A stretch of DNA of 64,000 bases from Pirellulaceae bacterium (GCA_041739785.1 JBGSNE010000106.1:29649-93648), one strand, 5' to 3'; shown: positions 2,315 through 51,671, counted from the first letter of the stretch. Made by a program: numbers and translations. The notes: generated by a model not told the origin, from the letters alone.

Positions 2315-2486
2315 ATGGTGAGCTTTTAGGTAAGTCAAAAGTGGTGGCGAACCGGACCAGAGCCACATCCAGTGTACCTTATGCTTTGGCAGTTCCGGGG
2401 GCAGACTTGGGGGCAGACAAGTTTTTGCGGGTGGCTATTAATCCACCCGACCTTGTGCTGTGTCCCCTTTTCCACCTCCTGTTCTC

Positions 2487-2588
2487 ATGCATCTCATCCC
2501 CTCGAAATACGGTTTGCCCGGCACCTCTGGACTCAAAGAAGAAGTCAAGCAGGGCACAAACACCTTTACGTTCGATCTCAAGGACTAA
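2487..2588 (+). pseudogene. C-terminal fragment of a planctomycete carboxypeptidase-regulatory-like lipoprotein (usual DUF1559 partner)
   Basis: HLIPSKYGLPGTSGLKEEVKQGTNTFTFDLKD* resembles the family C-terminus IP.KY..P.TSGL..EV..G.N.F.FDL; no N-terminus upstream. Confidence 0.6.
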
Positions 2589-2602
2589 CTAACGCAGGTT
2601 CG

Positions 2603-2623
2603 GGGTCAGACCCTGTTTTCAGG
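2603..2623 (+). repeat. REP-like motif identical to the end upstream of the RAYT gene at 26014-26034
   Basis: gggtcagaccctgttttcagg is the exact 21-bp reverse complement of cctgaaaacagggtctgaccc (26014-26034). Confidence 0.85.
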
Positions 2624-2677
2624 TGCTTGCGGGTGGCTAGTGCTTTGTCCAGCTTAAGAATTACGGTTCGACGCGCG

Positions 2678-2758
2678 TCGGGAAAAGGTGTCCGACACCA
2701 AAAGTGCGAAGCACCCGAAGGGCCGTTCCGGCTTTTGGCGTCGGACACCTTTTCCCGA
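2678..2758. repeat. REPIN-like hairpin, family A copy 1
   Basis: tcgggaaaaggtgtccgac ... gtcggacaccttttcccga inverted arms; near-identical copy at 54067-54153. Confidence 0.9.
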
Positions 2759-2841
2759 ACAACCCCCAAAATTATTTGTGGTTGAAGCACTAGCAATCCA
2801 GCTGACAGACATCGCTTTGCAATACGATTACAATCGTAACA

Positions 2842-5800
2842 ATGGGAATGAACTTGCTAGTGAAGTTGGCGATTTTTGTCGCGGTCATCGTGGTGTTCAC
2901 CGCGACGATCGCGAACTGGATGGGGTATCGTTTTGCCCGCGACAGCCTGACCACTCAGATTTACGAGCGCTTGCAGACGGTGGCGTACGATCGCGAGCAG
3001 CGATTGGATGCCTATGTTAGTCGGCAGCAAGAACGCGCTTTGTTGGTCGCCAGTCGAACGCGACTAAGACAGTATCTGGCCGACCATCTCGACGGAAAGG
3101 AATCGGATGAATCCTTTCGCGCCGGAGCCGAACGAATCCTTAGTGACGCAAAAGCCAGCATGGAGGCGTTCTTGGCGATTTCAATTGCCGATCCTAGCGG
3201 ACGCGTGGTGGCGACGACCAGCCAGAGTTACTTAGGTAAGAATTTTTCTGGGCACCCAGATTTCGAGCAGGGAAGGACAGAGACTCATCTCGGTACGCCG
3301 CGTAGCAGTGAGACTGAAGGCAAATTCGAAGCATTCTTGACAACGCCAGCGAAAACCAACGATGGCCAATTTTTGGGCGTTGTGATCGTCTTGCTGGACG
3401 TTCATCAATTGGTGGAACTGCTCCGCGATGAAAGGGGCTTGGGGACAACCGGCGAATTATTGGTTGCCTCCCGGGACGGAGATCGCATCCGGTATCTCAT
3501 TCCCTCAGCCAAATCAATGGCCGAGCAGGCCAGTCCCCGCGATGTGCCTGCGATGTTGCGCGCCATCGATGGCGAGAACGGACAGGGTATTGGCGAGTAT
3601 TCCGGACGGCGGGTGCTCGTCGCCTGGCAGCCGATCGAGTTTCAAGATTCGCAGTTTGCACGCTGGGGGTTGGTCGTCAAAATGGATGTTGATGAAGCCT
3701 TCGCGCCTATCGCGCAGTTGGGCAAGAACCAGTGGATCCTAGAGTCAGTGTTGGTGCTGCTAGGCTTGGTAGCCGCGTTTGTGTTGGCCAAGCGGTTTAC
3801 ACTACCAATCTATCGGTTAGTCAGCACAGCCGATCGAATTGCCGGCGGAGACCGCTACGCTCGTGTGGAAATCAACTCAACCGACGAACTTGGGCGACTG
3901 GGAATGGCGTTCAATCGCATGACGAACGAGTTAGTTCGCTCGCAGGAAACGTTGGAGGAACGCGTCGAAGAGCGAACCAAGGAATTGGCGAACTCCAATA
4001 CGTACCTTGAGAACGCGAGGAGCGAAGCAGAAAAACTGAAAGTGGAAGCAGAGCAGGCGAATCGCGCTAAGGGCGAGTTCTTGGCCAACATGAGTCATGA
4101 GATCCGCACGCCGATGAATGGGATCATCGGGATGTCCGGGCTTTTGGAAGGGACGCAGCTCACGCCAGACCAACGTGAATACTTGGGGATGGTGCGAGGT
4201 TCGGCCGATTCGCTGCTGCGTCTATTGAACGACATTTTGGATTTTTCCAAAATCGAGGCGGGCAAGCTGGAGCTTGAGTACATTCCGTTCGACTTGCGCG
4301 ACTGCATCGAAAGGACAGCCCAGTCACTTGGACTTCGCGCGGCCGACAAAGGGATCGAGTTGGCTTGCCACATCGAACCTACAGCTCCGCAATGCGTGGT
4401 GGGCGACCCGGGGCGCCTGCGGCAAATCATTGTCAATCTGGTCGGCAATGCGCTGAAGTTTACCGAACAAGGTGAAATCGTCGTCAACGTGACGCAAGAG
4501 GAACATACCGATCGATGGACTCAGCTACATTTCTCAGTTCGGGATACCGGCATCGGTATTCCACTGGACAAGCAAGCCGCGGTTTTTGAATCCTTTTCGC
4601 AGGTCGACGCATCCACCACACGAAAGTACGGCGGCACAGGACTGGGCCTGACAATCTCTGCTCAATTGGTCTCCTTGATGGATGGACGCATTTGGGTCGA
4701 AAGTAAGCTAGGCGAAGGAACCAAGTTTCACTTTACAGTACAGCTGGCAATCGGCAATCAGCAATCGGCCCCACGCCCGGCGGCCCTGGCCGATCTCGTT
4801 GGCTTGCCCGTGCTAGTTGTCGACGACAACCTCACCAATCGTCAAATCTTAGGCGAAATATTGCGAATCTGGGATCTGCAGCCAACCTGTGTCGAAGATG
4901 GACCAAGTGCCTTGGCTCAATTGCGGTCTGCTGCAGACTCGGGCAAGCCATATCAGCTTGTGTTGCTCGACTGCATGATGCCTGAAATGGATGGCTTTGG
5001 TGTCGCCGAACAGATGTTGCGTAGCGACATGCTGCGAGAAGCCAAGACAATCATGATTTCGTCGGCGGCCGATAGTGGTGATAGCGAGAAATGTCGAAAA
5101 CTGGGAATTGCCCGTTACATGACGAAACCAGTCGTGCAATCTGAGCTGCTCGACACAATTTTGGACGTGATGGTTTCGCCCGAACAAATTGAGCAGTCCA
5201 AACCCACTGAGACAATCGCTCAGGCCAAAGTCGCGCTGCGTGTCTTGTTGGTTGAAGACGGATATGTCAATCAGCGGGTCGCAGTGGGACTGCTCGAGCT
5301 CATGGGACACAAAGTCGAAGTCGCCGAGAATGGACAGGTAGCGATCGACGCTTGGCGAGAGAAAGACTTTGACGTGATTCTGATGGATTGGCAGATGCCT
5401 GTCATGGATGGCAAGGAGGCGACAATCGCGATTCGTAAGGAAGAGCAAGCCACCGGAGAACATGTTCCAATTTTTGCGATGACTGCCGCTGCGATGAAAG
5501 GGGATCGTGAACGTTGCCTGGAAGCCGGCATGGACGACTATTTCAGCAAGCCAATCGATCCTAGGCTACTGGCTAGGGCACTCGCCAAACTTCAACCTGG
5601 AACTCGACCACATACCGAACCGATTTCTGCAGATCAGGTCGAGCCTCAGAATGAGTCGCGCAAGCCAAAGGGTATCCTGAACGATGGTCCTGCTCTCGAC
5701 TATCAATTGATTGACATCGAACACGCGAAAGAGTGCATGGGTGGCTGTGACGAATCTCGGCTAGTCGAACTTGCGGAGACATTGCTCACTGAAGTAAAGC

Positions 5801-6054
5801 AACGACTCAAAGAAGTTGACGAATCACTTGCGATCGGAGACGCCGTGCGTGTTACACGGGGGGCGCACACTCTCAAGGGCGCAGCGAGTGTGTTCAAGGC
5901 GACTGGTTTGGTCAATATTGCCGAACAAATTGAAGATTTAGGCAACAACAAAGAACTAGACCAAGTCCCCGAGGCTTTGATAAAACTGAAAAGCGAAGCG
6001 TCTATCTTGGAGAACGAACTTCGTCATTACATTAGATCCAATTCCGAGCAATAA
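2842..6054 (+). CDS. Hybrid sensor histidine kinase/response regulator (TM-Cache-TM-HAMP-HisKA-HATPase-REC-REC-Hpt)
   Basis: [16 protein letters not shown]-box, [29 protein letters not shown], two receiver domains ([22 protein letters not shown]), AHTLKGAA Hpt. Confidence 0.97.
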
Positions 6055-6321
6055 TCGATTAACCCGATCGCCTAAGTAAGGTTCACGGCAGCGCTGTTGA
6101 ATGAGCGCAAGGACCGTTGGATACAACTTGTCGACCGCGAACCTGAAAGCGTTGCCGGACATCATGACAGGGAATCCAATGCAGATGCCCAAACAGAGCA
6201 AACACACGCGGCAAGCCTGAGTGCGCCCTTCCAGAAGCTATAATTGGCAGAAAGCAATATCAAATCCTTGGCGGACTCCGCCTTACTCTCAACGCTTCGG
6301 CAACTAATAAGGGCACGAACC

Positions 6322-7365: not shown

Positions 7366-7390
7366 GGGGCTGACCCGAATGGCTCCCCTT
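7364..7390. repeat. REP-like hairpin between convergent genes
   Basis: agggggctgacccgaatggctcccct; related to ggggggcagacccgaatggcac at 25272-25294. Confidence 0.55.
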
Positions 7391-9294: not shown

Positions 9295-9572
9295 CCCGCA
9301 ACCTTGGCTGGTGAAATTCTAGCGCATTCTGCAGCGGGGCATTCCTTGCTTGAAGCCAAGCAAAAAAGGTTTTGGACCACTTACGGACCCAGCACAATCA
9401 TCGGATATGGTGATAATTTAGACAGTGACCAACACCTCTGTTTGTTGGGCTTTAATTCGGCTCCAGTAGCAGCTTGGTGTTCGGATTGGCGCACCGAGCT
9501 GGAAATATCTGAGGCGTGCCTTGTCGCAAACTCGCATTAAGTTGGTGGAATCAACATAACTTGGAGCGATCT

Positions 9573-12500: not shown

Positions 12501-13556
12501 AGTCCCGACGGCCTCTGGGCGGCTACGGCCAGCACGGATCACACCGCTCGGCTCTGGGATTTGAAATCGGAAATTCCTAGCCATTCTTCCGTTGCACTAA
12601 GAGGGCACACGGGCGCAGTTACGAAATTGCTTTTTGTGAGCGACGGCCAGCGCCTCGTGACAGCCGGTGAAGATGGAACTGCCAGAGTTTGGAGCTGTGA
12701 TTCACCGTCAGCTACTTCCATCGTGTTGCGCGGACATGAACAGCAAATCACTTCGCTGGCAATAAGGTCGCAGGACAGTTTGCTGGCTACTTCCGGTCGG
12801 GATGGCAGGGTTTGCCTGTGGGACCTCGAGGCCAACGATCCAACTATACCACTTCACTCCCTAAAGGACGTCCATGTACCTGTCGTCCAGTCCGTAGATT
12901 TCAACTTCGCCGGCAATCTATTGGTAACTGGCGGCAGTCAGGAAGTTCGGATTCTAGACTTGGACAAGAAGCACCCACTCGAAAATTGCGAAGTACTCAA
13001 CTTCGAGAGCTACATATACTCTGCGAGCTTTCTTGCTTCGAATCGGCTGGTTGTAGATTTGAATAGTTCACTTGAGCTTTGCACACCGAGCAGGATGGAA
13101 GTCAAAGAACCGCCAATAGTCCTGGATAACACGGGCAGCACAAGACAGCCAATGGCACTTGACCCGTCCCGTCACTGGCTGTTCGGCTCAAAGGGAACTC
13201 CGTATTACTCAGTCTTGCGGCGATGGGATCTGGACGCGAGCGATCCGGCCGTGCCGGAGGTAATGTGGAAGCATACTCATGAAATTTTGAGCGTCGCCAT
13301 GAGTCTTGATGGGCGCTTTGTCGTCACTGGAAGTAGGGACCAGACAGCCAAGGTTGGTGAGTTTGCGCTAGGCTCGAAAGCCATTCCTATGATTCTTCAA
13401 GGCCACACTGGCGATGTCACTACGGTCGCCATGAGCCCCGACGCGCGATGGGTCTTGACCGGCAGCACCGACAACACGGCCCGCCTATGGGATCTGGATT
13501 TTGAGAGGCTCATCCAGCGGGCTAAGGCATTGGTTGACGGGGAGCCAGACCACTAA
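9573..13556 (+). CDS. Ser/Thr protein kinase with C-terminal WD40 propellers
   Basis: N-terminal IFLSALE...ACGQDSDLR motif, [30 protein letters not shown], one TM, >10 GH...WD repeats. Confidence 0.95.
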   Translation: METVDSIFLSALEKSSEVEVKAYLSSACGQDSDLRQLVERLIAAHQKVSRSFLEEAAPGLPARVDDERGRAVEQQAMHAGLAATFGPDEAVVIGGAGHSVLRSLSKQLTEVPNITLHDAHEERDGVLKPGSPELRGKPDERRYHLMGEIARGGMGAIIKGRDTDLGREIAIKVLLDSHKDRPELIQRFVEEAQIGGQLQHPGIVPVYELGQFGDQRPFFSMKLIKGKTLAELLVQRKEPSEDWPKLLGIFEQVCQTMSYAHSKGVIHRDLKPANIMVGAFGEVQVMDWGLSKVLSRGGVADEQQSLDKHRNVSVIQTRRSVGSDVAGEVGSDTRAGSAMGTPAYMPPEQALGEIDRLDARADVFGLGAILAEILTGQPPYVGQTGTDTFRMASRGKIDNCHKRLDNSSADPQLIVLAKTALSPEPEDRMRHAGELADGMTSYLEGVQAKLKATEIAKERQSKKYYAVTAALMFLIASAAVFGTVWFQRIAAEKSVLAQQKTTLAEQIKGQADSYAALAQKNEDLFTSEQSARQAVESSAQIIERIAQTFVVPDNQPIQRTRFAIEAAELARNNLSARPRAHESLLKASLAVGGLALSHPESSTHIALSPDQHWLACSCYDKTIRLWKCNGNATPKLHHVIAHGSSVVTFSNDSRWLVTGRDSTASAMLYDLTADNISASPLELIGHVEGRGAYYTALTRAYFSPDSQWLVTSTWDGAPRLWNLTGDKPVTTSVVLPTFEFRACAFSPDSRRMALAGSLKLSGTCFLLDLSLEDPVSAPVTIGNGLEVGTAVAFTPNGQSLITNDRNGVVRKWDLTVRDLENSEPRVLGGEHRHGNGTSSLAVSGDGRWAAIGSTDHSVHLWDLTAEPETPPTVLVGHENAAGHLVFSPDSRWLFTGSNDHSIRRWDLTAAYPATTSIKLTGHDSGITTLCISGDGESLFSSATDKWVRLWDIKVENPGTSPLVLQGHTGAITVAAISPDGLWAATASTDHTARLWDLKSEIPSHSSVALRGHTGAVTKLLFVSDGQRLVTAGEDGTARVWSCDSPSATSIVLRGHEQQITSLAIRSQDSLLATSGRDGRVCLWDLEANDPTIPLHSLKDVHVPVVQSVDFNFAGNLLVTGGSQEVRILDLDKKHPLENCEVLNFESYIYSASFLASNRLVVDLNSSLELCTPSRMEVKEPPIVLDNTGSTRQPMALDPSRHWLFGSKGTPYYSVLRRWDLDASDPAVPEVMWKHTHEILSVAMSLDGRFVVTGSRDQTAKVGEFALGSKAIPMILQGHTGDVTTVAMSPDARWVLTGSTDNTARLWDLDFERLIQRAKALVDGEPDH

Positions 13557-13679
13557 GCGACGCGAATGTTGCTCGTTCAGGCCCAGTCTTGAATGCCGAC
13601 CAAGACTAATCTAAATAACCCATTGCCTACTGTGAACTTAGCGAATGCTCTCAAATTCGCCATATGCATAGCTACCCCA

Positions 13680-14841
13680 TCAAATCATGGGAAAGCGATT
13701 ATGCATTGCTTGGTCAAGCAATGCGATCGGATTATACGGAGCAATTGCGTCGGCAATCGAGCGGCGGAAGTCGAGATAGTTATCGCGTTTCTGCAACGCA
13801 GTTGCCGTATTTAACTGACTCAAAACGCTATTTGCTGCGTCAACAAGTTCTGCTTCATCACATGCCAGGAAACCGGCATGGGACACATCGCATTCGGCTG
13901 TAATGCGTCGCTCATGCAGAACAACCGCCGCAAAATATGCGGCCGTCGCATCCATGAAGAGTTGCGTATTGGGAAGGCCAGCATAACACAGCGATACCAG
14001 CGTATCGATCCACCGCACTTCTCGTTGAAGCCAATGATTATAAGTCGCCAATCGCTGGTTGACCTCCCCTCCTTGCGAAAACGCCAGTGCAATGCGTAAA
14101 ACCCCTGTCAATGAATGTGCTATGCCAGTACTGTGCAGCGGATCGATAAAGCCAAATGCGTTGGGCATCGAGACCCAGCCATCGCCCACGGCGGTCGAAT
14201 TGCAACGCGCTAGCCGCTTTGATTGATGCATTTGGCTGATTGGCACCGACGCAGCCGCATGCGTTGAATCAATCAGAGTAGCATTGGCCAGCAACTCGGC
14301 GATGGTTGGATAGGAACCAATAGCCTGCTGCCACAATGCATTCAAATCGCCAGCCAGCGTGGTGACTAAACCAACACTGGTCGTACCGCATTGGAATCTT
14401 AGAAACCACAGCCAGCCTTCTTCGATAATGTGATGTTGAGCTGCATGATCGGGATTGAAAATGCGTGACGGATCTGAACTCAGAAATTGATCGTTATTTG
14501 AGAAGTGCAAGACGCCTTCGAAGTGCCCAAAAGTGGATCGAGCATGCATTTGAATGGAACCATCGTCGTCACCCGAATGTAAGCGGTCCCGAGAGAAATC
14601 GGCGCTTCCCGTCGCGTCAATAATCCAGTCACAGGACAGTGTTGTTGTTTCAGACAATTCGTTTCTTAGTTCAACCATCCATCGATTGCTGTGCCGCTCT
14701 AGTGCCCCAACAACCGCTTGCTCACGAAGCTCTACTCCGTAGTTGACTGCCGTTTTGGCCAAATATTGATCGACGTCGCTACGCAGCCAATGGGTATCGG
14801 AATTGAAGTCATTGGTCGAGGCAGCCACCATCAGCGAGTAC
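13680..14841 (-). pseudogene. 5'-truncated flavin-dependent halogenase-like oxidoreductase
   Basis: LMVAAS...DTHWLRSDVDQYL, WIIDATG, GWLWFLRF (WxWxI-like), GFIDPLHSTGIAH; no GxGxxG N-terminus; the ORF start is only the translated tandem repeat. Confidence 0.75.
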
Positions 14842-14938
14842 AAGCATCGGGGACATAAGCATCGGGGACATAGCACTTGTAAGCATCGGGGACATAGCAC
14901 TTGCGTTACAAGCATCGGGGACATAGCACTTGCGTTAC
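14842..14938. repeat. Tandem array of aagcatcggggacata(gcacttg) units, 4 copies
   Basis: Copies start at 14842, 14858, 14881 and 14910 (units of 16, 23, 29, 29 bp); core ggggacatagcac recurs inverted at 16368 and 16797. Confidence 0.95.
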
Positions 14939-15096
14939 GGAAAAAGTTTACTGAAAAGGAGGATTTGAGTGTAAGGAATCTCGGTTTTTTCCGTCGTCTA
15001 TATATCTGACTTCTCTCGCCGATTATTTCCGCCGGCTAAGCATGCTAGCAATGGCTGGCTCACGTGATACCGAGATCCTTTAAAGGGGGTAACATC

Positions 15097-16143
15097 ATGG
15101 CTCGTTTAGCTCGTGCGGAGCACTTTGCGCCTGATGAAATTGCGATTGTTCATGTCTTCAACCGCGTCGTCCGACGTTGTTATCTAATGGGCGACGATCC
15201 AGTAACTGGAAAAAACCATGACCATCGCAAGGTATGGATCGAAGAGTTGATAAAACGCCAAGCCCAGTTCTTCGCTGTGGATATCCTCGCGTTCTCTATT
15301 CTTTCCAATCATTTCCACCAGGTATTGCGCTCGCGGCCCGACGTGGTGTCGACTTGGGACGATACCGAAGTGGCTCGGCGGTGGTTGATGATTTGCCCCG
15401 CTCGCAAGGGGACTGATGGCTTTGCACTGGAACCCAACGAGGCGGAGCTGAATTCGATCCGTACTGACCCGGACAAATTGAAAATGATCCGCTTGCGCCT
15501 GAGCGACATCTCGTGGTGGATGAGACTGCTGTGCCAGAAGATCGCGCAGAGGGCAAATGCCGAGGAAGAAATTTCCGGAAAATTTTGGGAGACTCGCTAT
15601 CGCGCTGTCAGAATTCTCGATGAAGCGGGATTGTTGGCCTGTGCAGCCTATGTCGACCTCAATCTGATTCGGGCTGCGCTAGCGGAGTTATTGGAAGATA
15701 GTAACCATAGTTCTATCCAGCGCCGGATCGCTGCTATGAAAGAGGAAGCGACTGACACAGGGCGCCAACGGTCAGATAGTTTTCTGGCTCCGCTGACGAT
15801 CGACGAATTGCGCGATGCCTTGGGACCTTGTGCGAACCAACGCGGGGAGCGTGCCAGCGATAAAGGGTTTCTAACGATGTCGATCGAATCGTATGTCGAG
15901 CTACTCGACTGGACTGCGCGGCAGATTGTTCTTGGTAAACGCGGCAGCACCCCGGTTGCGGCCCCTGTGATCCTCAAACGCTTGCAGCTTGACGCACAAG
16001 TATGGTGCGAGTTAGTCAGCGACTTTGGTCGCTTGTTCAGTTTAGTAGCTGGCCGGCCTCAAGTCATCGATGCTACCCGCAGTCGACGCCGCCAAAGTCG
16101 ATACCGTTCGCCACGCCGTCTGCGAGAATTGCTGGTTTGCTAA
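15097..16143 (+). mobile_element. HUH/Y1 (IS200/RAYT-like) transposase
   Basis: MARLARAE, HVFNRVVRRCYL, ILSNHFHQVL (HUH), RLSDISWWMR, FWETRY, YVDLNLIRA (catalytic Tyr region). Confidence 0.9.
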
Positions 16144-16384
16144 CCACCGCTTCGACGCTTCGGCATTTTTCGTAAGCTTCGCGAGTATTTGCTTGCTCGT
16201 CTAGTCGAAGCTGTATTTGGCCTTCTTGGTATCTCGCCCTTTTTCCGACAGGGAACCGTCTCTGCTGCGTGATATCGTCGATCGGCCCTTCTATTGCAGT
16301 CGTTTTTGGCTAAATGCAATTCCCGCTAGACATTCACTCCAAGGGCTGCTTCTCAACCTGCCACCACAGTGCTATGTCCCCGTT

Positions 16385-16815
16385 GGTTTTGCCCCTGCGA
16401 TCCTCGAACGCCTGCAGCTTGACGCACAAGCCTGGTGCAAGTTAGTCAGCGATTTTGGGCAGTTGTTCAGTTTGGTAGCTGGTCGTCCTCAAGTCATCAA
16501 TGCCACCCGCAGTCGACGCCGTCAAAGTCGATACCGCACGCCACCCCGCCTGCGAGAATTGCTAGTTAGTTAACCACCCCCGCGAAGCTTCGACATGTTA
16601 CGCAATCTTCACTAGCATTGGTTTGTTAGTCCGGTCGAAATTCAATCTGGAGCTCTGTATCTCACGCCTTTTCGGTCAGGGGATCATGTCTGCTGCGTGA
16701 TTTGGTGGATAGATTCTTCTACTGCAGTCGTTTGGGGCTGGCTTCGATTCTCGCTAGTTCTTCACACCAAGGGGCTGCTTCCCAACCTACCATCACAGTG
16801 CTATGTCCCGGTTGG
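16385..16815 (+). repeat. Diverged ~430-bp tandem duplicate of transposase 3' end plus downstream flank (copy 1 about 15955-16385)
   Basis: gcccctg at 15961 vs 16391; both copies encode ILxRLQLDAQxWCxLVSDFGxLFSLVAGRPQVI...RLRELLV and end in agtgctatgtccc.gttgg. Confidence 0.92.
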
Positions 16816-17068
16816 AAGGTTCATGTGCCCAGCTTGCCAAATCGTATTTGCGGCTCCCGACGAGTGCCACTCGCAGACAATACAATTAAACCAGTCTGAA
16901 TCAGTATGGGTACTTCGTTTGGATCTAGACCGAAAGAGATGGCTTTTTATCCGCTGGGTTCGGACTGCAAAGGAGGAAACAAATGGCCAACCGGTTTAGA
17001 CGGTTAGCGACATAAAGCGGGAGACTGTCAAGTCAACTGATTTTAGGTAAAGCGGCGTTTCTGCCTGG

Positions 17069-17165
17069 TCATATCGAATTGGAGCTTGGCTGAAACTCGT
17101 AAGCGCCGGTGTCTGGAGCTGAGTTGACGGCCCGCGAATAGGGGCTGCCACACAGAGATTCACTC
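17069..17165 (-). pseudogene. C-terminal gene fragment with choice-of-anchor-Q-like motif
   Basis: LCGSPYSRAVNSAPDTGAYEFQPSSNSI* resembles D..G.PR....PDIGAYE; begins at the hairpin 17172-17236. Confidence 0.45.
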
Positions 17166-17171
17166 GAATAG

Positions 17172-17236
17172 ATAGCTCCGCCTTCGTGATAGGTACGTAT
17201 TAGTCTTTGCTTGTGCGCGTTCCCGAAGGCGGAGCT
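17172..17236. repeat. REP-like hairpin
   Basis: tagctccgccttcg ... cgaaggcggagcta perfect inverted arms. Confidence 0.75.
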
Positions 17237-17389
17237 ATCAATTCTCGTAGCGGCTGAATTCGCCGGCTCGTGGTTTGCGTCCTCAGCGGCTGCTATGCAA
17301 ACCCGTTAAATCCATTTGGATCATCGATCTCTGTGGCGTCTCACATGCGGATCGGGTTAGCAGCTGGCTACACGAATAGAAGCGCGGTG

Positions 17390-19252
17390 CTAGTAATCGC
17401 GACCGGTGGTCAGAGCTGAGATGGTGCGTCCTTGCATGGAAGCGGCGGCGGCGGCGAACCAGGAGCCAACCAGTCCGGCCGTCACCAAAATCGACACAAA
17501 GACTCGCAAATGACCGATCCCCGACTGTTCGAACTGCTCTGCTGGTCCAAACATGAGGAGCGAAGTGGCTAGCACCGGGGGCAGGGCCGCTAAAAACTGT
17601 AACTTGCGGTTCCTGCCTGGAATATGAGAAAGTTCTTTTGCCGCAGTTGCTCGAAAATCCGCAACGTCACCCCATAATCTGGGATACAGAGATCGGATGA
17701 CGACAAAAGAGACAACGAAATAGTTGGCCGTCATGGCAATCATTCCGGTGAAGATGAATGCCACCGCGACATGCAGCCAACATCCGAATGGAATGCGACC
17801 GCTCAACAATTCCATGCCTGACGGAACGACGACTGCAAATGGAAACCACCCTACGCATCCCAGGACAATGCACCAGATCGGCAGCATCAGGACTTGCTGT
17901 CGCAGGAAGGTCTCCACAGCTCGCTCGCGATGAAATTCACGGGCGGCGCGGAGCAGTGTCCGATCGAGTAGCAACAGCATGGCCAGCGCGACCACAGCGT
18001 TATACCAGGTGATCACGATCCAAAAAGAATTTCGTTGTGCTAGGGGCAATTCGACGATTACGAATTGAGACAGATACCACACATTGGCGGCGCTGGCAAA
18101 CACATTGGGGACTACCGTGCAGACCAAGATGAACATTACCGGATGCAGTTCGGCAAATCGGGTAAACCAACTTGGCTGAGGCATTGCGCGCTTGGCCACC
18201 AACCATTGGCGACAGCCGACCAGCGCGGCGGCCAGTTCATCAGCCGTCGGAAATCGCTCCGTCGGCTCGGCTCTGAGGCATCGACCCACGATCCGCCCCA
18301 GCGGGCGCGACAGCTCTAGGTCGGCGGTCGGAGAACGGGTGTGCAACAGGCAGTTGAGCACTTTGCCCAATGAGAAAATGTCGCTGCGTTGATCGACATC
18401 CGTCCCTGGCGAGGCATGGGGCTGTTCCACCGCCCGGCAATGTTCGGGTGACATAAAGCCCATCGTCCCCCCCAGCACAGTAGCTCCGTCGCTGGTTGAC
18501 GAATTCGCCTGAAACGCGACGCTGAAGTCGGTCAGCATGGGGTGTCCGTATTGATTGAGCAAGATGTTGGCCGGTTTCACATCACGATGCAAGACCCCTT
18601 GCTGATGCGCGAACGCCAGAGCTTCTGCGATCTGCTCGCCGATCCAACACACAGCTTCAGTAAGCGTGCTGTTGATCAACAATTCACGATCGCGTAATCC
18701 CGAGGGATCGAATGCCGTCTCATGGTCGTTGACAAACCGATCCAAAATCTCAACCAGCGCCCGCCCACTACGGCGGGAGGCCTCGATCCTCGCTAGCTCA
18801 TCGACAATCTTCTGCAAAGTGACACCGGCCACGAATTGCATGCAGAGCATGCGGATACCGTGCTCGGTCGACACGGTTTCGGAAAACACTTGCACGATTC
18901 GTCGATGTTCGAGCTGTGCCATCATTCGACCTTCATAGCCGCGATCGGCTGTGACTTTAATAGCCACCAAACGATTGAGTGAAAGCTGGCGAGCCAAAAA
19001 GACTTTTCCGAATGCACCTTGTCCCAGTAGGCGGATGATCTGAAAATCTCCAGAGACCAACTCCAGTTTCTTCAATGATGTCGCCGCTGCCTGCTCTGCG
19101 CAGAATTCAGCCGGTAGACTCGGTGCGAAACCATTGGTGCTGAGCGTGCCGATTTCGGCCTCGATACTAGTCAATTGCGACGGATCTCGGTTCGAACCAA
19201 ACAGGTAGTGGACTGACTGATTGTTGTTGTTCCAAGTTGAATGCGAAATCAT
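17390..19252 (-). CDS. Ser/Thr protein kinase with polytopic (about 6 TM) C-terminal membrane domain
   Basis: LGQGAFGKV, VAIK, HRDVKPANILL, DFS, GGTMGFMSPEH, SDIFSLG; six hydrophobic segments after the kinase. Confidence 0.92.
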   Translation of the reverse strand: MISHSTWNNNNQSVHYLFGSNRDPSQLTSIEAEIGTLSTNGFAPSLPAEFCAEQAAATSLKKLELVSGDFQIIRLLGQGAFGKVFLARQLSLNRLVAIKVTADRGYEGRMMAQLEHRRIVQVFSETVSTEHGIRMLCMQFVAGVTLQKIVDELARIEASRRSGRALVEILDRFVNDHETAFDPSGLRDRELLINSTLTEAVCWIGEQIAEALAFAHQQGVLHRDVKPANILLNQYGHPMLTDFSVAFQANSSTSDGATVLGGTMGFMSPEHCRAVEQPHASPGTDVDQRSDIFSLGKVLNCLLHTRSPTADLELSRPLGRIVGRCLRAEPTERFPTADELAAALVGCRQWLVAKRAMPQPSWFTRFAELHPVMFILVCTVVPNVFASAANVWYLSQFVIVELPLAQRNSFWIVITWYNAVVALAMLLLLDRTLLRAAREFHRERAVETFLRQQVLMLPIWCIVLGCVGWFPFAVVVPSGMELLSGRIPFGCWLHVAVAFIFTGMIAMTANYFVVSFVVIRSLYPRLWGDVADFRATAAKELSHIPGRNRKLQFLAALPPVLATSLLMFGPAEQFEQSGIGHLRVFVSILVTAGLVGSWFAAAAASMQGRTISALTTGRDY

Positions 19253-19285
19253 GTCGTGCCGAGCCTTTCCACATGCTAAAAACGG

Positions 19286-20074
19286 CTAAAGTGGGGTCGA
19301 TTGAGAACGCCCGGCGGTGGTTAGGCAATAACGATATAGGCGTAATCGCTTCAATTCATTCCGCAGTTCTTGTTCGCTAGGGTGTCCCAATGAATGCGAA
19401 ATTTCGCTGCATAGAAGTTTGGCGAACAGCCCCCGCGCACGATGCAACAACACTCGGAAATGGTTGTCGGAAATTGATCGCCCCAGTTGTTGCGACAAGA
19501 GCTGTGTCTTGTGGGCAGCTGTCGCATCGGAGTACTCTACTTGGATCCTGAGTAGGGCGTATAAATTCGGTTTCTGGCTTTTCATTGCCGCCCAGCTACG
19601 ATCGAGTAATTCGCTGCGCCAGCATTCGACAAATAAACCGTCATCCGCTTCAGGTTCCCGATCCAGAACGTGATCTCCTTGGCGGTGTGTTTTAACTGGG
19701 AAGCGTTGCTGGCTGTCGCCAGAGCTTGTTGTCGCCTGCCAATCGGCCAGTGGCAGGGGAGAGCTACATTGGCAGCGTTGTAAATCGCGCACGAGATTGA
19801 TCAACAGCGATTTTAGGTAATCACGGAAACGCCCCTTGCGTTGTTCGGCACGAAAGCAGTCGCCGCGTATCAAACGCAGCGCGAACTCCTGGAAGAGGTC
19901 CTCGGCTGCGTCTTGACTGCCGGTGATCGCCAACATGTAACGAAAGGCGGCTCCGCTATAGCGGTCGAGCAATTCATGGCGTGCGGCGGCGGTTGCTCCC
20001 TCCGCATGGGCACGAGCGACCAACGTCCAGCGCGTGTCAATTTGATTGAGGCGTGATTGCGAGTTTCGTTCCAT
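19286..20074 (-). CDS. ECF sigma-70 factor (planctomycete kinase-associated type)
   Basis: IDTRWTLV, AARHELLDRY, DAAEDLFQEF, GRFRDYLK, FRVLLHRAR; directly upstream of the STK. Confidence 0.9.
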   Translation of the reverse strand: MERNSQSRLNQIDTRWTLVARAHAEGATAAARHELLDRYSGAAFRYMLAITGSQDAAEDLFQEFALRLIRGDCFRAEQRKGRFRDYLKSLLINLVRDLQRCQCSSPLPLADWQATTSSGDSQQRFPVKTHRQGDHVLDREPEADDGLFVECWRSELLDRSWAAMKSQKPNLYALLRIQVEYSDATAAHKTQLLSQQLGRSISDNHFRVLLHRARGLFAKLLCSEISHSLGHPSEQELRNELKRLRLYRYCLTTAGRSQSTPL

Positions 20075-21330: not shown

Positions 21331-21670
21331 ATCGTCATTCCTCTGGTACTCGTGTTCAACAACCGGCGAGTGCTTCGCGCGGACAAAGATTGGGTTTTCT
21401 GTAATGGCAGTAGTACTTGAAGCGAATGGTTGAGAGGTCTCTTCCAGATCTTCTTGACACATAGCGATAAAGAAAACAATCATGTCCCGTCAGCGCCAAC
21501 AACATTCATCTCGTTGATTCGGTCAGGTAGAAAGTTTGGAGGCCCCTTTCTCGCTAATTCCCTCCCATGTTGCCGCCAAAATTTGCGGGCATACCGAGGA
21601 AGTCGCAAAAGCGCACTACCGGCAAGTGAGCATTAGCGACTTGGATTCCGCAATCGTCAAATTTGAATGC
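21331..21670 (+). pseudogene. Decayed C-terminal fragment of a tyrosine recombinase/integrase
   Basis: IPSHVAAKICGHTEEVAKAHYRQV resembles box II GH...HY; upstream frame IVIPL...WVF...*...TFISLIRS with a stop and a frameshift. Confidence 0.5.
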
Positions 21671-21755
21671 CCCGAGTTAGCCCACTACGATGGCTTGAAT
21701 GGATCGGCAACGTCTATTTGTATTGCCAAAGCTAAAGCCGCGACACACAGCGTGA

Positions 21756-21797
21756 AAGGGACAATGGGGACAAGAAGGGACAATGGGGACAATGCAC
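21756..21797. repeat. 19-bp tandem duplication containing a ggggacaNNgcac motif variant
   Basis: aagggacaatggggacaag aagggacaatggggacaatgcac. Confidence 0.7.
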
Positions 21798-22165
21798 TGG
21801 GTTCGTGGAAAACAATTTTGCAAAAAGTGTGGATTGTGTTGTAAGGTTCTGCGATTTTCTCCGTCTTATTAATTGACGTTAGTTCTTTAGGAGCGACTTC
21901 AGCTGACATTTTTCAGCCTCTATAGGAGCACAAATAAATCTGGCGCAGATTGGTCTACAACGCAAGGTGGCAAATCGCAAAATCGACAGCAGCTCTGTAT
22001 TCCCGATGTTGCTGCCACTAACGTCCAACATCAATAGTCCCTGACTGCTTCCGTTTTTAGGGAACTCGCAGGGTTAGCGTGACAGCCACCGTTGTCTGTC
22101 GCTGGTTTTCGAGCCACAATATTTGACGCGATATGCGGGCTCAATTAGAAGGGGAGGATGCGTCG

Positions 22166-24123: not shown

Positions 24124-25092
24124 ATGGTGACCGCAGATCAAAAATACAGGCTCTTGACACGTAGCGATTTCGACGGACTTGTGTGCGCAATTTTGCTAAA
24201 AGAATTGGGCTTGCTGGGTGAAATCAAATTCGTGCATCCAAAAGACATGCAAGATGGGCTAATTGAGGTAAACGATAAAGATATTCTGACCAATCTGCCC
24301 TATGTCGAGTCTTGCTACCTGTGTTTCGACCATCACAGTAGTGAAGAAATTCGTCATGGCGGCAAACAGCTTGACAACTACGTTTTGATGCCCAATGTGG
24401 ATTCCGCGGCCCGAGTCGTTTACGAATACTTCGGCGGCAGCGAACGATTTCCCCAAGTCAGCGTCGAGATGATGCAAGCCGTAGATAAAGCTGACGCTGC
24501 CAGGTTCACTCGCGAAGAGATTCTCGATTCCCAGGGGTGGCCGCTGATGTCGTTCTTAATGGATGCACGAACTGGACTGGGCCGCTTTCATAATTTCCGC
24601 ATTTCCAATTACCAGTTGATGATGGATCTGATTGACTATTGCAAAGCTCATACGATCGAGGAGATCCTACAATTGCCCGATATTCAAGAGCGTGTCGAAT
24701 TATTCAAATCGCATCAAGAGCCATTCAAAGAGCAATTGCTGCGCTGCGGGACGCGACATCACAATTTGGTGGTACTTGACTTGCGAGAAGAGGAAACGAT
24801 TTTCACGGGGAATCGATTCATGATCTACGCCTTGTATCCGGAGACGAATATTTCCATTCACGTGCTTTGGGGGAGACTAAAACAGAATACTGTGTTCACC
24901 ATTGGTAAGTCGATTCTGGATCGTTCGTGCACGACGGACGTCGGCGAGCTGTGTCTGAAATATGGTGGAGGCGGCCATGAAGCGGCGGGCACCTGCCAGG
25001 TTAATCATGAAGATGCTGAAAGCGTCCTAGATGAATTAATTCAGCAAATCCATGCCGATGCTGGATTCGAAGTATCGATGGCCAAGTCGTAG
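24124..25092 (+). CDS. DHH-family phosphoesterase (exopolyphosphatase-related)
   Basis: [48 protein letters not shown]. Confidence 0.92.
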
Positions 25093-25263
25093 AACAACGG
25101 GTACGGGGAACGATCCTGTCGATCAACTTTGTTGACAAATGTCAGTACCGGAGTATTTCGCAACGCACAAACTCGAAATAGTTTCTCGGTCTGTGACTCG
25201 ATTCCCTTAGCCAAATCGATGACCATCACGGCGGCTTCGGCCGCCATCAGTGTGCGATAGGTA
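25085..25263 (-). pseudogene. prfC: Internal fragment of peptide chain release factor 3
   Basis: [53 protein letters not shown] matches the RF3 G-domain (DTYRTL.AVD.A.MVID.AKG.E..T.KL..VC.LR..P..TF.NK.DR). Confidence 0.85.
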
Positions 25264-25407
25264 AAAGGGGCGGGGGGCAGACCCGAATGGCACTGTCGTG
25301 ACGGTATCGGCGCGCAAATTGAGCTAGGACTGAGTCGAGAAATTTTGTTTGGAGTGGCAGGGGGCAGAACTTGTTTTAAGGATTTGCTGTAATTGTTCCA
25401 ACTTCGC

Positions 25408-25969
25408 TTAAACCGTTTTGGACTCTCGCATGGCTCGTGCTGCTCGCCGTACTAGATTGCTGACACTATCCGGATGAGATAAACCAAATAGCCCAGCCAG
25501 TTCGCGAAACCTCGCCGTCGTGTGGCGATGAGCCAAATAGGCTGCCATGTCTCGGCCACGGTTTTTTCGAACGTCCAGGGGAGTATCTCAAAACTTCCTC
25601 ATCATAAAAGCTTGCAACGACGTGCAATACTTCTTGCGGCGTTAATGCAATTCGACGCAGTTGAGGAACCTGATCTGGTTGATGTCCTGGCCGATCATGC
25701 CGTTTAGCGTACCAATTCGCATAGCCGCTGAGCAAGTACTGCATACCACGCGAAAGATTGGGTTGCGGAGTTCGGAAGAACAAGTGGATATGATTCGGCA
25801 TCCACACAAACGCGAACACTTCCCAACCTGTTCGAGCGACCGTCATCTCGAGCCCGTCGAGCATACCCTGGTAGTCTTCGTCAGTATGAAACAGCAACTG
25901 GCGACCATTTCCACGCGCCATGACATGATAGATCGCCCCGTTAACTTGAATTTGCAACGGTCTTGCCAT
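25408..25969 (-). mobile_element. REP-associated tyrosine transposase (RAYT) pseudogene with internal deletion and frameshift
   Basis: MARPL...YHVMARGN, FVWMPNHIHL (HUH), LSRGMQYLLSGY, RHDRPGH then a jump to a C-terminal HTH (GRDMAAYLAHRHT...[15 protein letters not shown]) in another frame; the LFQGRY and YIHLNP segments are missing. Confidence 0.88.
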
Positions 25970-26045
25970 AACAACCAAAAATTCTTACCTGTATCTCGAA
26001 ATACGGACGAACTCCTGAAAACAGGGTCTGACCCAGGTGGCGGTT

Positions 26046-39874: not shown

Positions 39875-39881
39875 TAATTGG

Positions 39882-44077: not shown

Positions 44078-44154
44078 AAAGAGCCATCGAATCAACACTA
44101 AATCAACAAGCCCTGACGGCCCACGGCTCACATTTTTTGATTGGTATTAATCCC

Positions 44155-47003: not shown

Positions 47004-47061
47004 TCTAACGGCACTAACTTACACCACAATTAAACTTAGTTTTCGAGCCGAGGCCAATTCC

Positions 47062-48390: not shown

Positions 48391-48445
48391 TGTTAGTACC
48401 GCGTCGCCAAACCTTGGGTCTATTGGTTACTAGTCAAATGAGCGG

Positions 48446-48544
48446 ATTGCCCGGTGCCTTACGGGCTTGTTGATTTAGTGAGCCTCAGGCGCGTGAGCGG
48501 CCGGGCGACCAATATTGCCCGGTGCCTTACGGCCCGCGGCTCAC
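48446..48544. repeat. REP-like cluster (19-bp direct repeat attgcccggtgccttacgg x2)
   Basis: Copies at 48446 and 48514, interleaved with gtgagc..gctcac arms. Confidence 0.75.
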
Positions 48545-48559
48545 TTTCGTCGTTGTCGT

Positions 48560-48665
48560 GGAGTCGGCAACGGGACTTTACGTCCATCATATTGTGACTG
48601 TAGTGCAAGTCGACGCGTTGCGCATAGCAGCCCGTCATCAGGCTGGCTCTTTAAGGCATACAAAC
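48560..48665 (-). pseudogene. Fragment of a formylglycine-type sulfatase active-site region
   Basis: VCMP*RASLMTGCYAQRVDLH matches CxPSRxxLxTG with the Ser codon read as TAA at 48651-48653. Confidence 0.7.
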
Positions 48666-48968
48666 GCACCACTCAAAAATGGTCGCGAGGTATTCGCTAT
48701 TCTAAAACAATACATGATGGCAACTTGTTATGATTAATTTGAGAAATACCGCTGGACTTTGCAGCGTTCCAGCAGAAACGGTTCGTGATCGAATGGCACG
48801 ACGTTAATGCATAGCGGGATTCGCCGAGAATTTCGACGAAGCACTTTCTTATTGGAAAACCGAAACTCTTAGCGGGTTGCGCTACGGATAACCCTTGGCC
48901 CTTGCAGCATTCGTATCAAAGTCGTTTTATTTTCGGTATGTCACTTACAGCAATAAGGAACTCGGACC

Positions 48969-50297
48969 ATGACGCACCAGCCAACACGGCGCGGAATATT
49001 GAAATCGGCAGCGGCACTTGGCGCAGGAGTGTGGTTAGGAACGAGCTCCCGCGCAGCATCGACGGCGGCCAATGGCAAACTCAATGTAGCATTTGTAGGA
49101 GTGGCCGGACGCGGGGCTAGGAATTTGGCGGCGCTCGCTCCGCTGGTGAACGTGGCTGCTTTGTGCGATGTCGACAGTCAACGACTAACCGCTGCTGCCA
49201 GTGAACATTCGCAAGCTTCTAAGTGGTCCGACTTTCGCGAAATGCTTGACCAGCAATCGGATCTCGACGCGGTTTCCATCTCGACACCAGATCATTTGCA
49301 CGCTTGCATCGCAGTATCGGCCATGCGACTCGGCAAACACGTGTACTGTGAGAAACCGCTGGCGCACAGCGTCTACGAAGCGCGATTGATGGCTGAAACT
49401 GCCGCCACGGCGGGCGTGGTGACGCAAATGGGCCAGCAGCGGCACGGCGATCCACGTCTAAGGACTGCTGTCGAAATGATTCAAGCGGGAATGATCGGCC
49501 AAGTATCGGAAGTGCACATTTGGTCTGGCAAGAATGTGAGTTGGTCCGCAGGTGACCGACCTTCGCAGAGCGATCCGGTTCCCGAATGGCTCGATTGGGA
49601 ATTGTGGCTCGGTCCCTCACCGCATCGCCCGTACGTGACGGATGCCTATGCCCATCGCAACTGGCGCAGCTGGTGGGACTTCGGCAGCGGCAATCTCGGC
49701 GATATGGGATGCCATCTTTTCGACTGTGCGTATTGGGCACTCGGGCTCGATTTTCCAACGAAGATTGACGCGCACGGTCCCCCAGTCCATGCCGAAAGCG
49801 CTCCCGAGGGGCTGACCTGCCGCTATGAGTTTCCGGCACGAGGTGACAGACCGGCCATTCCACTGACCTGGTACGACGGCACGCATTCTCCACCCTGGCA
49901 AACCATCGAGGGAGTTAAGGTTGTGCCTGAACAGGCGACGCTATTTATGGGCGAGAAAGGGAAATTGCTGTTTCCCCACAACGAACCCATCGAGCTGATT
50001 CTGGGAGGAAAGTCGGTCAGCTTTACTCCACCTGAACAGACCATTCCGCGAGTAGACGGTGAGAACCCCAACCACGCGGAATGGGTCAATGCGATTCATG
50101 GCAACAGCAAATCGCTTTCTAACTTTGGTTATTCGGGCCGACTTACGGAAGTCGTGCAAGCAGGCGTGGTGGCATACCGATCTGGACAGCCGCTCCAGTG
50201 GGACGGTCCTAACATGAGGGCTCGTAATTTCGCCGAAGCGGCCGTTTTGATACATCCGCAGTTTCGCAAACTCTGGGCCGAAGGTTTGAAAGGTTGA
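48969..50297 (+). CDS. Tat-exported Gfo/Idh/MocA oxidoreductase
   Basis: TRRGIL; LNVAFVGVAGRG, STPDHLH, YCEKPL, WELWLGP, WRSWWDFGSGNLGDMGCH. Confidence 0.95.
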   Translation: MTHQPTRRGILKSAAALGAGVWLGTSSRAASTAANGKLNVAFVGVAGRGARNLAALAPLVNVAALCDVDSQRLTAAASEHSQASKWSDFREMLDQQSDLDAVSISTPDHLHACIAVSAMRLGKHVYCEKPLAHSVYEARLMAETAATAGVVTQMGQQRHGDPRLRTAVEMIQAGMIGQVSEVHIWSGKNVSWSAGDRPSQSDPVPEWLDWELWLGPSPHRPYVTDAYAHRNWRSWWDFGSGNLGDMGCHLFDCAYWALGLDFPTKIDAHGPPVHAESAPEGLTCRYEFPARGDRPAIPLTWYDGTHSPPWQTIEGVKVVPEQATLFMGEKGKLLFPHNEPIELILGGKSVSFTPPEQTIPRVDGENPNHAEWVNAIHGNSKSLSNFGYSGRLTEVVQAGVVAYRSGQPLQWDGPNMRARNFAEAAVLIHPQFRKLWAEGLKG

Positions 50298-50438
50298 AGG
50301 CGCTATGAACCGCCGTACAGTGTTGCGGCTCCTGAGCTCGAGTGACCAAAATTGTCGTGATTTCAAGCGAGTGATGTCATAGCGTTCCATGTTCATTCGC
50401 TCGGCACATTTGGTCAATCGACAAAACGTTTTAGATGA

Positions 50439-51326
50439 CTATTTTTCAACCTCGACACTGGCCAATGCGTTTTCAGCGGCCAAGCGTGCCGCTCGTGTCT
50501 TGATGTCCTTGCCGCCATAGTCGTTTCTTTGCGAGAGCAATCGCAGGTCAGCGGCCGCCAATGCAGCGGCGGGGCCGAGCTGTGCAATTGCGTTTGCTGC
50601 CGACTCAGCGATCGACGGTTCTTCTTTTAACGCCAGACGCAGAGCAGGCAGTGCGGTTAAGTCTGCACCGATTAGAGAAACGGCTCTTACCGCTGCCCCT
50701 TGCAAATCGCGACTTTGTCGATAGTAATGGGCTTGCAGTGAATCACCATTTAGCGGAACGCGTGGTTCGCTGATGATTGTAACGAGCTGAGGCAAAACAG
50801 GCTTGGCTGTCGGACCAATTTTTCCGAGGGCAATGATCGCGGCTTCGCGTAGTTCGAAATCGGAAGCTTCTATTTGGAGGCTCAACCACTGAATTGCCTC
50901 GGTCGCCGCAGGTCCTAGGGTTCCGATGACGGTGATCAAACGTATTGTCCCTTCCGGGTGGGAAGACTTGACGCTGTTCATCAAATCAGGAACGATTGCC
51001 GGACCGAGTTGCGATAAGGTGTGTTGCAAAGCGTAAACAGTTGTCACGTCCGGCTGACTAATTAGCTCGTCGATCAGTGTTTGGCTAGCACAGCTGGCCT
51101 CTGAGCCTAAGCCCCCCAGGTAGCGAATTGCATCAATCCGCAATTCGCGATCGGGGTCATATCTGGCAATATCAGAGACTGTCGTCACTTGGTCCGCAAA
51201 CCACTTCCCTTGAATTCGCGAAAGCAGGATGTTTCTTGGATTTTTTGCATTCCAAGTTTGCTCTGCTTCTGCCGTACAGCCAATCAACAGTGCGAAAACA
51301 AGTGTTCCACGAATGAAAAAGACCAT
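50439..51326 (-). CDS. HEAT/PBS-lyase repeat protein, possible lipoprotein
   Basis: LLIGC lipobox-like; repeated AI..LG..G..A...VP.L motifs. Confidence 0.8.
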   Translation of the reverse strand: MVFFIRGTLVFALLIGCTAEAEQTWNAKNPRNILLSRIQGKWFADQVTTVSDIARYDPDRELRIDAIRYLGGLGSEASCASQTLIDELISQPDVTTVYALQHTLSQLGPAIVPDLMNSVKSSHPEGTIRLITVIGTLGPAATEAIQWLSLQIEASDFELREAAIIALGKIGPTAKPVLPQLVTIISEPRVPLNGDSLQAHYYRQSRDLQGAAVRAVSLIGADLTALPALRLALKEEPSIAESAANAIAQLGPAAALAAADLRLLSQRNDYGGKDIKTRAARLAAENALASVEVEK

Positions 51327-51671
51327 CGCAACTTTCCTTTCGATTCATAACCGCAATCAATTCTCAATGCGCAGTGGTTGAAAGTGTTATGGATACGGAC
51401 GCAAGAACCACTGTGCCAGTTCCCGTCGGATCGGGAAAAGAAGAGTTCAACTGGGGTTGAACTTCAGACGTGTTGTCAAATTCGAAGGCGCCGATGTCGG
51501 AAGCAGGTAAACGCTCGCAATGATCGCCTACTTCGATCTGCCGCAACTGCGCACGGCTTGTTACGAGCCTTCAATCTAGCCGGACTTGCGCAGCGAAGCA
51601 GCCGTAGGCGAGGTTGGCCCCGTTGATCCTCGCCGACGGCTGCGGGTTAAACAATAGCCGTCCGATCAACA

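Follow-up and report, generated by a model that had tools for sequence, protein, structure and literature searches.

Gene fragments beside putative TIRtron elements in a Pirellulaceae genome: probable insertion, adjacent deletion and decay rather than REP gene capture

Introduction

Why do pieces of unrelated genes lie directly beside short repeated motifs in the genome of a Pirellulaceae bacterium? We address this question in a 64,000-nucleotide stretch of that genome (GCA_041739785.1, JBGSNE010000106.1:29649-93648; G000:C197:29649-93648 in our numbering), hereafter called the window, whose own coordinates are used below unless a contig or locus is named. It holds two genes of the Y1/HUH transposase type, Y1a and Y1b, both of which had been recognized in an earlier note on this DNA. 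That note had read the motifs as repetitive extragenic palindromic (REP) sequences and had proposed that REP-anchored gene capture or deletion is reshaping this genome. We find that four well-supported gene fragments end within 1-22 bp of the terminus of a Y1 element. The pattern is probably the outcome of TIRtron insertion, followed by adjacent deletion or rearrangement and by decay, rather than of gene capture by REPs.

TIRtrons, as described in two papers (Di Nocera et al. 2013, PMC3733652; PMC6006769), consist of RAYT-like genes, termed TIRYT, that lie between terminal inverted repeats (TIRs); in most described members the TIRs contain the consensus GGGGWSAS. Di Nocera et al. report TIRYT genes to be plentiful in Rhodopirellula baltica (PMC3733652). 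REP-anchored capture, if true, would extend flank capture to RAYT-type enzymes; the evidence presented here does not support it.

Results

Four gene fragments abut the ends of Y1 elements

The motifs that had been cited as REPs at 2455, 14839, 16368 and 25272 turn out to be low-copy (4-5 exact copies, all local), and their sequences identify them as the termini of two Y1/HUH element families. Genuine REPs among the cited motifs are only those next to a weak sulfatase piece and an unsupported tail near 51530. The term "REP-anchored" is therefore not supported for the four fragments described below, whose motifs are low-copy TIRs of apparent TIRtron elements and lie outside the REP families of the genome.

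A gene resembling flavin-dependent halogenases (13680-14838, minus strand) has lost its 5' part and keeps 386 of about 520 codons. Within the open reading frame (ORF) 13680-14924(-), the Pfam Trp_halogenase match is confined to profile positions 157-387 of 458, and ten homologs from the genus are 510-560 amino acids (aa) long. Homology starts at 14837 in eight of the ten tblastn alignments and at 14840 and 14867 in the other two; the alignments begin at homolog residues 113-159, 1 bp from a repeat array at 14839-14940. The N-terminus that binds flavin adenine dinucleotide (GSGxxGS, 110-160 aa) was found neither within positions 13000-20000 nor anywhere else in the genome. The genome also yielded no second copy of the gene, and the nearest genus homologs share only 35-42% identity. 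Because the other half of the gene is missing, a deletion at the element terminus is the simplest account of this fragment. The truncated gene reported at 14841, close to a motif, is thus confirmed, but the motif is the left end of the Y1a element and not a REP.

The element is built around Y1a (15097-16143, plus strand), an apparently intact gene for a TIRYT-type Y1/HUH transposase of 348 aa with the motifs NHFH and, further on, YVDLNL. Its left end is a stutter array (14839-14940, plus strand) of four units measuring 15, 24, 29 and 29 nt, each composed of a copy-specific AAGCATC and a conserved TIR tip beginning with GGGGACATAGCAC. The right end (16343-16386, plus strand) finishes with CAGTGCTATGTCCCCGTTGG, inverted relative to the left-end core, so that the element is bounded by inverted repeats, GGGGACATAGCAC in four copies on the left and GTGCTATGTCCCC on the right. 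All 4-5 exact genome copies of GGGGACATAGCAC fall within the window. In eight copies from three relatives the inverted termini GGACAYAGCAC...GTGCTRTGTCC are conserved, and the element measures 1.35-1.55 kb. Y1a matches the NF047646 RAYT model weakly (E 9e-7; 28.8 bits, under the curated cut-off of 80 bits) and PF01797 at E 0.012. Its homologs number more than 2000, with identities of 56-83%, some of them named RayT or IS200-like by their sources, and the closest named source is Aureliella helgolandensis. The protein itself was found on one contig only; members of the family are present in 42 of 49 genomes of the genus, frequently as several full and many partial copies.

Directly downstream lies the second fragment, a 5'-truncated tandem repeat of the 3' end of Y1a that brings with it a second right end (16391-16815, plus strand, 425 bp). 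It shares 80% identity with 15961-16386, a segment covering the final third of the gene and the right end, and begins 5-10 bp after the right-end motif. The adjacent Y1a gene is its source, which makes it the sole fragment with an identified source. A transposase tail had been placed at 16385, shortly after a motif, and so it is, although the motif is the Y1a right end and not a REP.

The third fragment is an orphan C-terminal lipoprotein tail of 33 codons (2487-2590, plus strand; MHLIPSKYGLPGTSGLKEEVKQGTNTFTFDLKD*), from which about 100-130 codons are missing on the 5' side and whose translation shows an in-frame stop upstream. Its tblastn matches fall at C-termini only, in lipoproteins of 130-190 aa and in one protein of 672 aa; five small lipoprotein paralogs are matched at E 3e-4 to 9e-3, and identity to paralogs in the genome is only 36-57%. 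The tail lies 16-22 bp after GTGCTGTGTCCCC, the low-copy core (2455-2467) of a right-end-like motif in which a mini relic of a Y1 element ends (2398-2472, plus strand). This relic contains two left-end-type motifs (GGGGGCAGACTT and GGGGGCAGACAAGTTTTTGCGGG), which resemble motifs upstream of Y1a-like genes on contigs C3 and C41, and is 61% identical to the Y1a right end at 16343-16386. A C-terminal tail near a motif does exist at 2487, as had been claimed, but the 2455 motif is not a high-copy REP. Just beyond the tail is a copy of REPb (GGGGTCAGACCCTGTTTTCAGG; 2602-2623, plus strand), the left-end or TIR motif of the Y1b family.

The fourth fragment is an internal 60-codon relic of release factor 3 (RF3; 25083-25262, minus strand), corresponding to prfC residues 105-164. 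Read from 25262 to 25083, it matches positions 98-156 of the prfC model with E 7.5e-24 and is 77% identical to residues 105-164 of genus prfC. It starts 9 bp from GGGGGCAGACCC at 25272, a degenerate motif (25272-25293, plus strand) with one other exact 20-nt copy, on contig C157. The RF3 fragment noted at 25263 is thus a real relic at a motif, which again is no high-copy REP. No intact prfC was found in the genome, which is 99.98% complete. DNA matching prfC turned up in 16 of 48 genomes of the genus, and all five loci that were fetched contain a full-length gene; the gene is patchy across the genus, with full genes in at least eight genomes. At six of the 42 sites where ten intact prfC genes all agree, the relic has a different residue, and it shares 67-77% identity with these genes, which are on average 89% identical to one another. 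Its sequence thus marks it as an old pseudogene piece under relaxed constraint. In a comparison meant to show whether prfC had decayed in place, the surroundings of prfC in five relatives and of the DHH gene in four had no gene in common with the window apart from the queries themselves, and synteny in the genus is very low. The five prfC neighbourhoods are also unlike one another, which itself points to very low synteny.

Next to the RF3 relic are the remains of two further Y1 genes. Y1b (25466-25978, minus strand) is an internally deleted, single-copy TIRYT gene of 170 aa, compared with 330-349 aa in relatives; it matches PF01797 above the cut-off (E 4e-8) at profile positions 2-85 of 121 only, and keeps the HUH motif while the region of the catalytic tyrosine is missing. 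Facing it is a stub (25350-25465, plus strand) in which a REPb-variant left end (GGGGGCAGAACTTGTTTTAAGG) and a leader are followed by 13 codons from the start of another Y1 gene, which breaks off at the end of Y1b. A homologous unit is present at C197:12958-13060. In both units an ATG follows the REPb about 55 nt later and opens a conserved transposase N-terminus (MARAARRTR...). Since REPb here is a left end succeeded by a transposase start, at least some REPb copies are 5' stubs of elements and not free-standing REPs. Another REPb lies upstream of Y1b as its left-end motif (GGGTCAGACCCTGTTTTCAGG; 26014-26034, minus strand). The genome has about 30-37 copies of REPb, some of them as inverted pairs, and REPb contains no GTAG hairpin. 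One inverted doublet, at C98:17736-17900, stands just upstream of an EF-G-like gene; the tblastx links between this doublet region and the region of the RF3 relic are misleading and probably a coincidence.

Stutter arrays recur at the ends of the Y1a family

Both termini of the Y1a family carry short tandem stutter arrays in every well-resolved copy, namely the copies in the window and on contig C3 of the same genome and those in the genomes G012 (three), G031 (two) and G058 (three). The array unit spans the junction between flank and element: 6-9 copy-specific nt are joined to a stretch of the conserved TIR tip measuring 10-30 nt. Units further upstream are cut short to differing extents. Besides 14839-14940 in the window, arrays are found at C3:510-700 of G000, at 2342-2438 of locus L079, at 3702-3790 and 1296-1604 of L084, and in L077, L078 and L080-L083. 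The flank part of the unit differs between copies of one genome that are 95-97% identical. The pattern implies a process that acts after each insertion, and it suggests repeated nicking, extension and rejoining at the termini.

The 5'-truncated tail copy also has a counterpart. In L084 (G058:C35), positions 1357-2203 hold a 5'-truncated 3' part and a right end, placed immediately behind the right end of a complete copy. The tail copy is 88% identical to the full copy there and 80% identical in the window. Its presence in two genomes looks like a recurrent trait of the family and not a one-off event. In the two TIRYT papers (PMC3733652 and PMC6006769), as far as searched, we found no description of stutter arrays or of 5'-truncated tail copies.

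The same observations bear on the possibility that the junctions are assembly chimeras, formed where contigs were joined through repeats. The assembly is fragmented into 328 contigs, and the number of copies in a tandem array of 24-29 nt units could be mis-assembled. Yet the halogenase frame stays open up to its junction, and the junction motifs are not only low-copy but also far shorter than assembly k-mers. Because of this low copy number, and because arrays and tail copy alike recur in independent assemblies, including a single-contig genome, we consider chimeric junctions very improbable.

The elements resemble TIRtrons more than other HUH systems

Judged by sequence, both Y1 families fit the TIRtron/TIRYT class. 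Each encodes a Y1/HUH transposase homologous to RAYT and to the TnpA of IS200 (Y1a with HUH motif and tyrosine, Y1b with the HUH motif only), and the genes in the window are flanked by terminal inverted repeats instead of REP stem-loops. GGGGWSAS is present in the TIRs: the relatives' GGGGACAC (or with a final T) agrees at eight of eight positions, as does GGGGTCAG in the REPb at 2602, and GGGGACAT of Y1a in the window agrees at seven of eight. The proteins, about 340-350 aa long, have extra domains, with a helix-turn-helix-like region at the C-terminus of Y1b-type relatives, and REPb forms a moderately abundant family of solo TIRs (about 30-37 copies) with some inverted pairs. Unlike TIRtrons as described, Y1a is multi-copy and 56-83% identical across many Planctomycetes, its tyrosine motif is Y---NL and not Y---NP, and it has stutter arrays at both ends as well as 5'-truncated tail copies in two genomes. 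Being both multi-copy and highly conserved, Y1a behaves like an active insertion sequence (IS). The families probably belong to TnpA_Y1 class 2, subclass 2.1 or 2.3, of Quentin et al. 2018 (PMC6006769); that paper reports that autonomous mobility of class 2 genes has no formal evidence behind it.

The REPIN-RAYT system (Nunvar 2010; Bertels & Rainey 2011, PMC3116915) shares with Y1b a single-copy gene between inverted short repeats that also occur dispersed and as inverted doublets. In contrast to that system, the repeats here are not GTAG-tagged palindromic hairpins and number in the tens rather than the hundreds; the Y1a ends occur only locally; Y1b is internally deleted and has lost the region of the catalytic tyrosine, and Y1a is multi-copy in the genus. 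Moreover, the truly abundant families of REPs and miniature inverted-repeat transposable elements (MITEs) in this genome are not those beside the fragments.

IS200/IS605 elements lack TIRs, have subterminal hairpins and encode a TnpA of about 130-160 aa, whereas TIRs and proteins of about 340-350 aa are found here. The IS200 model NF033573 reaches E 0.029 for Y1b and does not match Y1a.

IS91-type and Helitron enzymes have two catalytic tyrosines. The IS91/ISCR/Helitron group shares HUH chemistry with the elements in the window, and the outward-reading fragments and the tail after the right end look superficially like read-through products. However, the HUH rolling-circle enzymes of that group are organized differently and their elements have no TIRs, whereas the proteins in the window match only Y1_Tnp/RAYT models and TIRs are present. 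That group also yields multi-copy units of element end plus cargo with identifiable donors, and none were seen here.

Donors, cargo and the genome-wide distribution of truncated genes

If a Y1 (TIRYT) transposase had captured or transduced its flanks, by one-ended transposition or read-through as in the IS91/ISCR/Helitron group, the fragments would be cargo lying 3' of an element end and moved to new sites. Several observations fit: the fragments start 1-22 bp from termini and read outward, a 5'-truncated tail follows the right end both in the window and in G058, the junction-spanning arrays at both ends suggest repeated nick-and-rejoin, and the RF3 relic is not in the surroundings that prfC has in relatives. 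Such capture predicts donors and multi-copy units of end plus cargo, and it counts against it that neither was found. A search for an intact donor elsewhere, the check that had been suggested, gave none for the halogenase or RF3 and only the 36-57% identical paralogs for the lipoprotein tail. Each fragment is single-copy, with no repeated 14-mers inside, and the RF3 relic is old and degenerate. Among relatives, nearly all Y1a copies with recognizable ends sit between intact genes (about one in 12 left ends, in L059, possibly abuts a truncated gene), and about 12 copies contain no cargo apart from the element's own 5'-truncated tail after the right end in L084. We know of no flank transduction by Y1 transposases of this superfamily. 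Flank capture is accordingly an improbable source of the fragments, and the term "gene capture" is not supported.

The genome-wide distribution of truncated genes also fails to single out REPs. Short repeated DNA, as delimited by 14-mer counting, makes up 2.5% of the 8.58-Mb genome (54% GC) in 5283 segments. We compared DNA outside ORFs of at least 250 aa with those 3875 ORFs by blastx and removed REP-versus-REP matches; an end was scored if it lacked 80 aa or more of its best paralog and the frame was closed, and REPs were counted within 70 bp outward. Some of the fragments so detected are probably short paralogs and not relics. A REP was found near nine of 146 5'-truncated and nine of 116 3'-truncated ends (6-8%), compared with 6-9% of intact ends at the same loci, 13% of gene starts, 28% of gene stops and 26% of random intergenic positions. 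Stricter cut-offs gave 7-18%, GGGGWSAS-type motifs lay near 0-2% of truncated ends versus 1% at random, and a REP was near only 1-2 of 12 sulfatase fragments. Truncated ends are therefore no closer to REPs or GGGGWSAS motifs than the controls are, which is the very observation that the earlier note had named as speaking against its proposal, and the claim that REPs are reshaping this genome is not sustained.

These figures also raise the question of whether the pattern across the window was largely over-read, with short intergenic ORFs matched by eye to protein tails in DNA where REPs are everywhere. Because REPs occur in every intergenic region, proximity to one is expected by chance, as the 26% of random positions illustrates, and some of the original items do dissolve. 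Two "anchor-Q tails", at 17165 and about 51530, have no similarity anywhere in the genome, and searches against Pfam and NCBIfam gave nothing significant: one tail matched NF041518 at E 0.025 as its best family and the other matched no family. What had been taken for a REP at 17165 is a long, unique hairpin (17166-17244), present in the genome as two copies that are its own two arms and belonging to no repeat family. Its arms are 24 bp long (-39.9 kcal/mol, z -4.4), it lies about 150 bp downstream of a Ser/Thr kinase gene, and a terminator scan found no canonical terminator there. The sulfatase fragment said to run into a REP is marginal: a candidate active-site relic with an in-frame stop (CMP*RASLMTGCY; about 48588-48668, minus strand; tblastn E 0.002-0.004), probably a sulfatase piece, does lie about 43 bp from a REP cluster at 48446-48545, but Pfam Sulfatase has no match on this contig, this piece included, while matching 133 times in the genome, and the wider Pfam and NCBIfam searches likewise found nothing significant in the piece. 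Over-reading thus applies to a subset of the fragments only. As an account of the whole it is unlikely, given four solid fragments (with E down to 7.5e-24 and an exact boundary at 14837) that abut low-copy termini; with about eight such sites in about 7 kb of intergenic DNA, the chance of lying within 25 bp of one is about 0.06 for each fragment, as a rough estimate. The original list of broken genes at motifs consequently holds for the four fragments and weakens or fails for the sulfatase piece and the two tails.

Other relics and repeats in the window

A solo left end of Y1a type (21755-21900, plus strand) consists of GGGACAATGGGGACAAGAAGGGACAATGGGGACAATGCACTGG and a leader like 14940-15000, and no Y1a-like coding sequence comes after it. 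The adjoining frame at 21560-21650 (AAKICGHTEEVAKAHYRQVSISDL) gave the first impression of a tyrosine-recombinase C-terminus; this integrase candidate was dropped, as Pfam and NCBIfam gave nothing significant. Relics cluster in patches of low GC: the genome has a value of 0.54, but the stretches at 20-22 kb and 24-26 kb reach only 0.48-0.49. The window also encodes the planctomycete domains PSCyt1/2, PSD1 and DUF1559 and a planctomycete extracytoplasmic function (ECF) sigma factor.

At least ten high-copy repeat families are present in the window, so that the earlier count of at least seven REP families was correct. All occupy normal intergenic positions between intact genes, and the abundant REP and MITE families are bystanders. 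One of them is a 157-bp MITE of the GGTGTCCGACACC family (2637-2793, no strand assigned; ends CTAGTGCTT...AAGCACTAG), an ordinary high-copy repeat with about 156-217 copies that lies away from any breakpoint. The MITE, also present at 54033-54174, has a long hairpin in its centre, and its left tip, CTAGTGCTTTGTCC, is similar to the core of the Y1a right end, GTGCTATGTCC. Of the short repeats encountered, AACGTCGCACGACTCTCCGAGTCGTGAC at 53394-53423 is the most abundant; it has 14-mers with up to 337 copies and is flanked on both sides by copies of the repeat CGAAAGTCTTGGCGACTTCCGCTACG. A genuine high-copy REP of the GTTTAACCCGCAGCC family (51598-51656, no strand assigned) adjoins the unsupported tail at about 51530.

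Discussion

Adjacent deletion and rearrangement mediated by insertion sequences are classical IS biology. The window shows their features: a gene cut exactly at a terminus with its other half gone, elements that are nested or abut one another, and relics in clusters. The mechanism is documented for IS of the DDE type, whereas for Y1 TIRtrons we infer it here. REPs, for their part, have reportedly served as IS targets or as points of recombination (Tobes & Pareja 2006; Shyamala et al. 1990).

The likely account, then, is that the window contains one apparently intact copy and several decayed copies of two TIRtron families. These would have inserted into or beside genes, and DNA on one side would later have been lost or exchanged, whether by deletion from an element end, by recombination between copies or by elements landing side by side; the remnants would then have decayed in patches of low-GC junk DNA. 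Fragment boundaries, missing halves and the degeneracy of the RF3 relic and of Y1b are directly observed. We infer the order of events, and likewise the removal of DNA by deletion or recombination rather than by transposase chemistry.

Four points weigh against this account. All four solid fragments are truncated at the 5' side and read away from the element end, a polarity not expected from simple decay, although its chance is about 0.06 (n=4). The site of the RF3 relic matches none of the prfC neighbourhoods seen in five relatives, so the relic may have moved. The recurrent tail copy and the junction-spanning arrays point to processing of the ends by the transposase instead of passive decay. 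Finally, the genome-wide test covers only paralog-detectable fragments shorter than 250 aa and misses cases like the halogenase or RF3.

We also put forward a tentative idea, which we regard as possible but doubtful. TIRYT may act on both ends of the element by a rolling-circle-like cycle of nicking, limited extension and rejoining that leaves stutter arrays and occasional tail copies. The same chemistry could give the terminus-anchored deletion of the halogenase and might rarely mobilize adjacent DNA.

Apart from this idea, insertion followed by adjacent deletion and decay makes the locus ordinary, a small set of degraded gene pieces beside TIRtrons in decay in a planctomycete rich in repeats, with the caution that a GGGG-rich motif need not be a REP. 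The TIRYT/TIRtron class is scarcely studied, and both Y1 families of the window add to it. The stutter arrays, recurring across the genus, could give a handle on the chemistry of TIRYT transposition, and if the cycle of nicking, extension and rejoining is true, they would be the first footprint left in sequence by the mechanism of this uncharacterized class.

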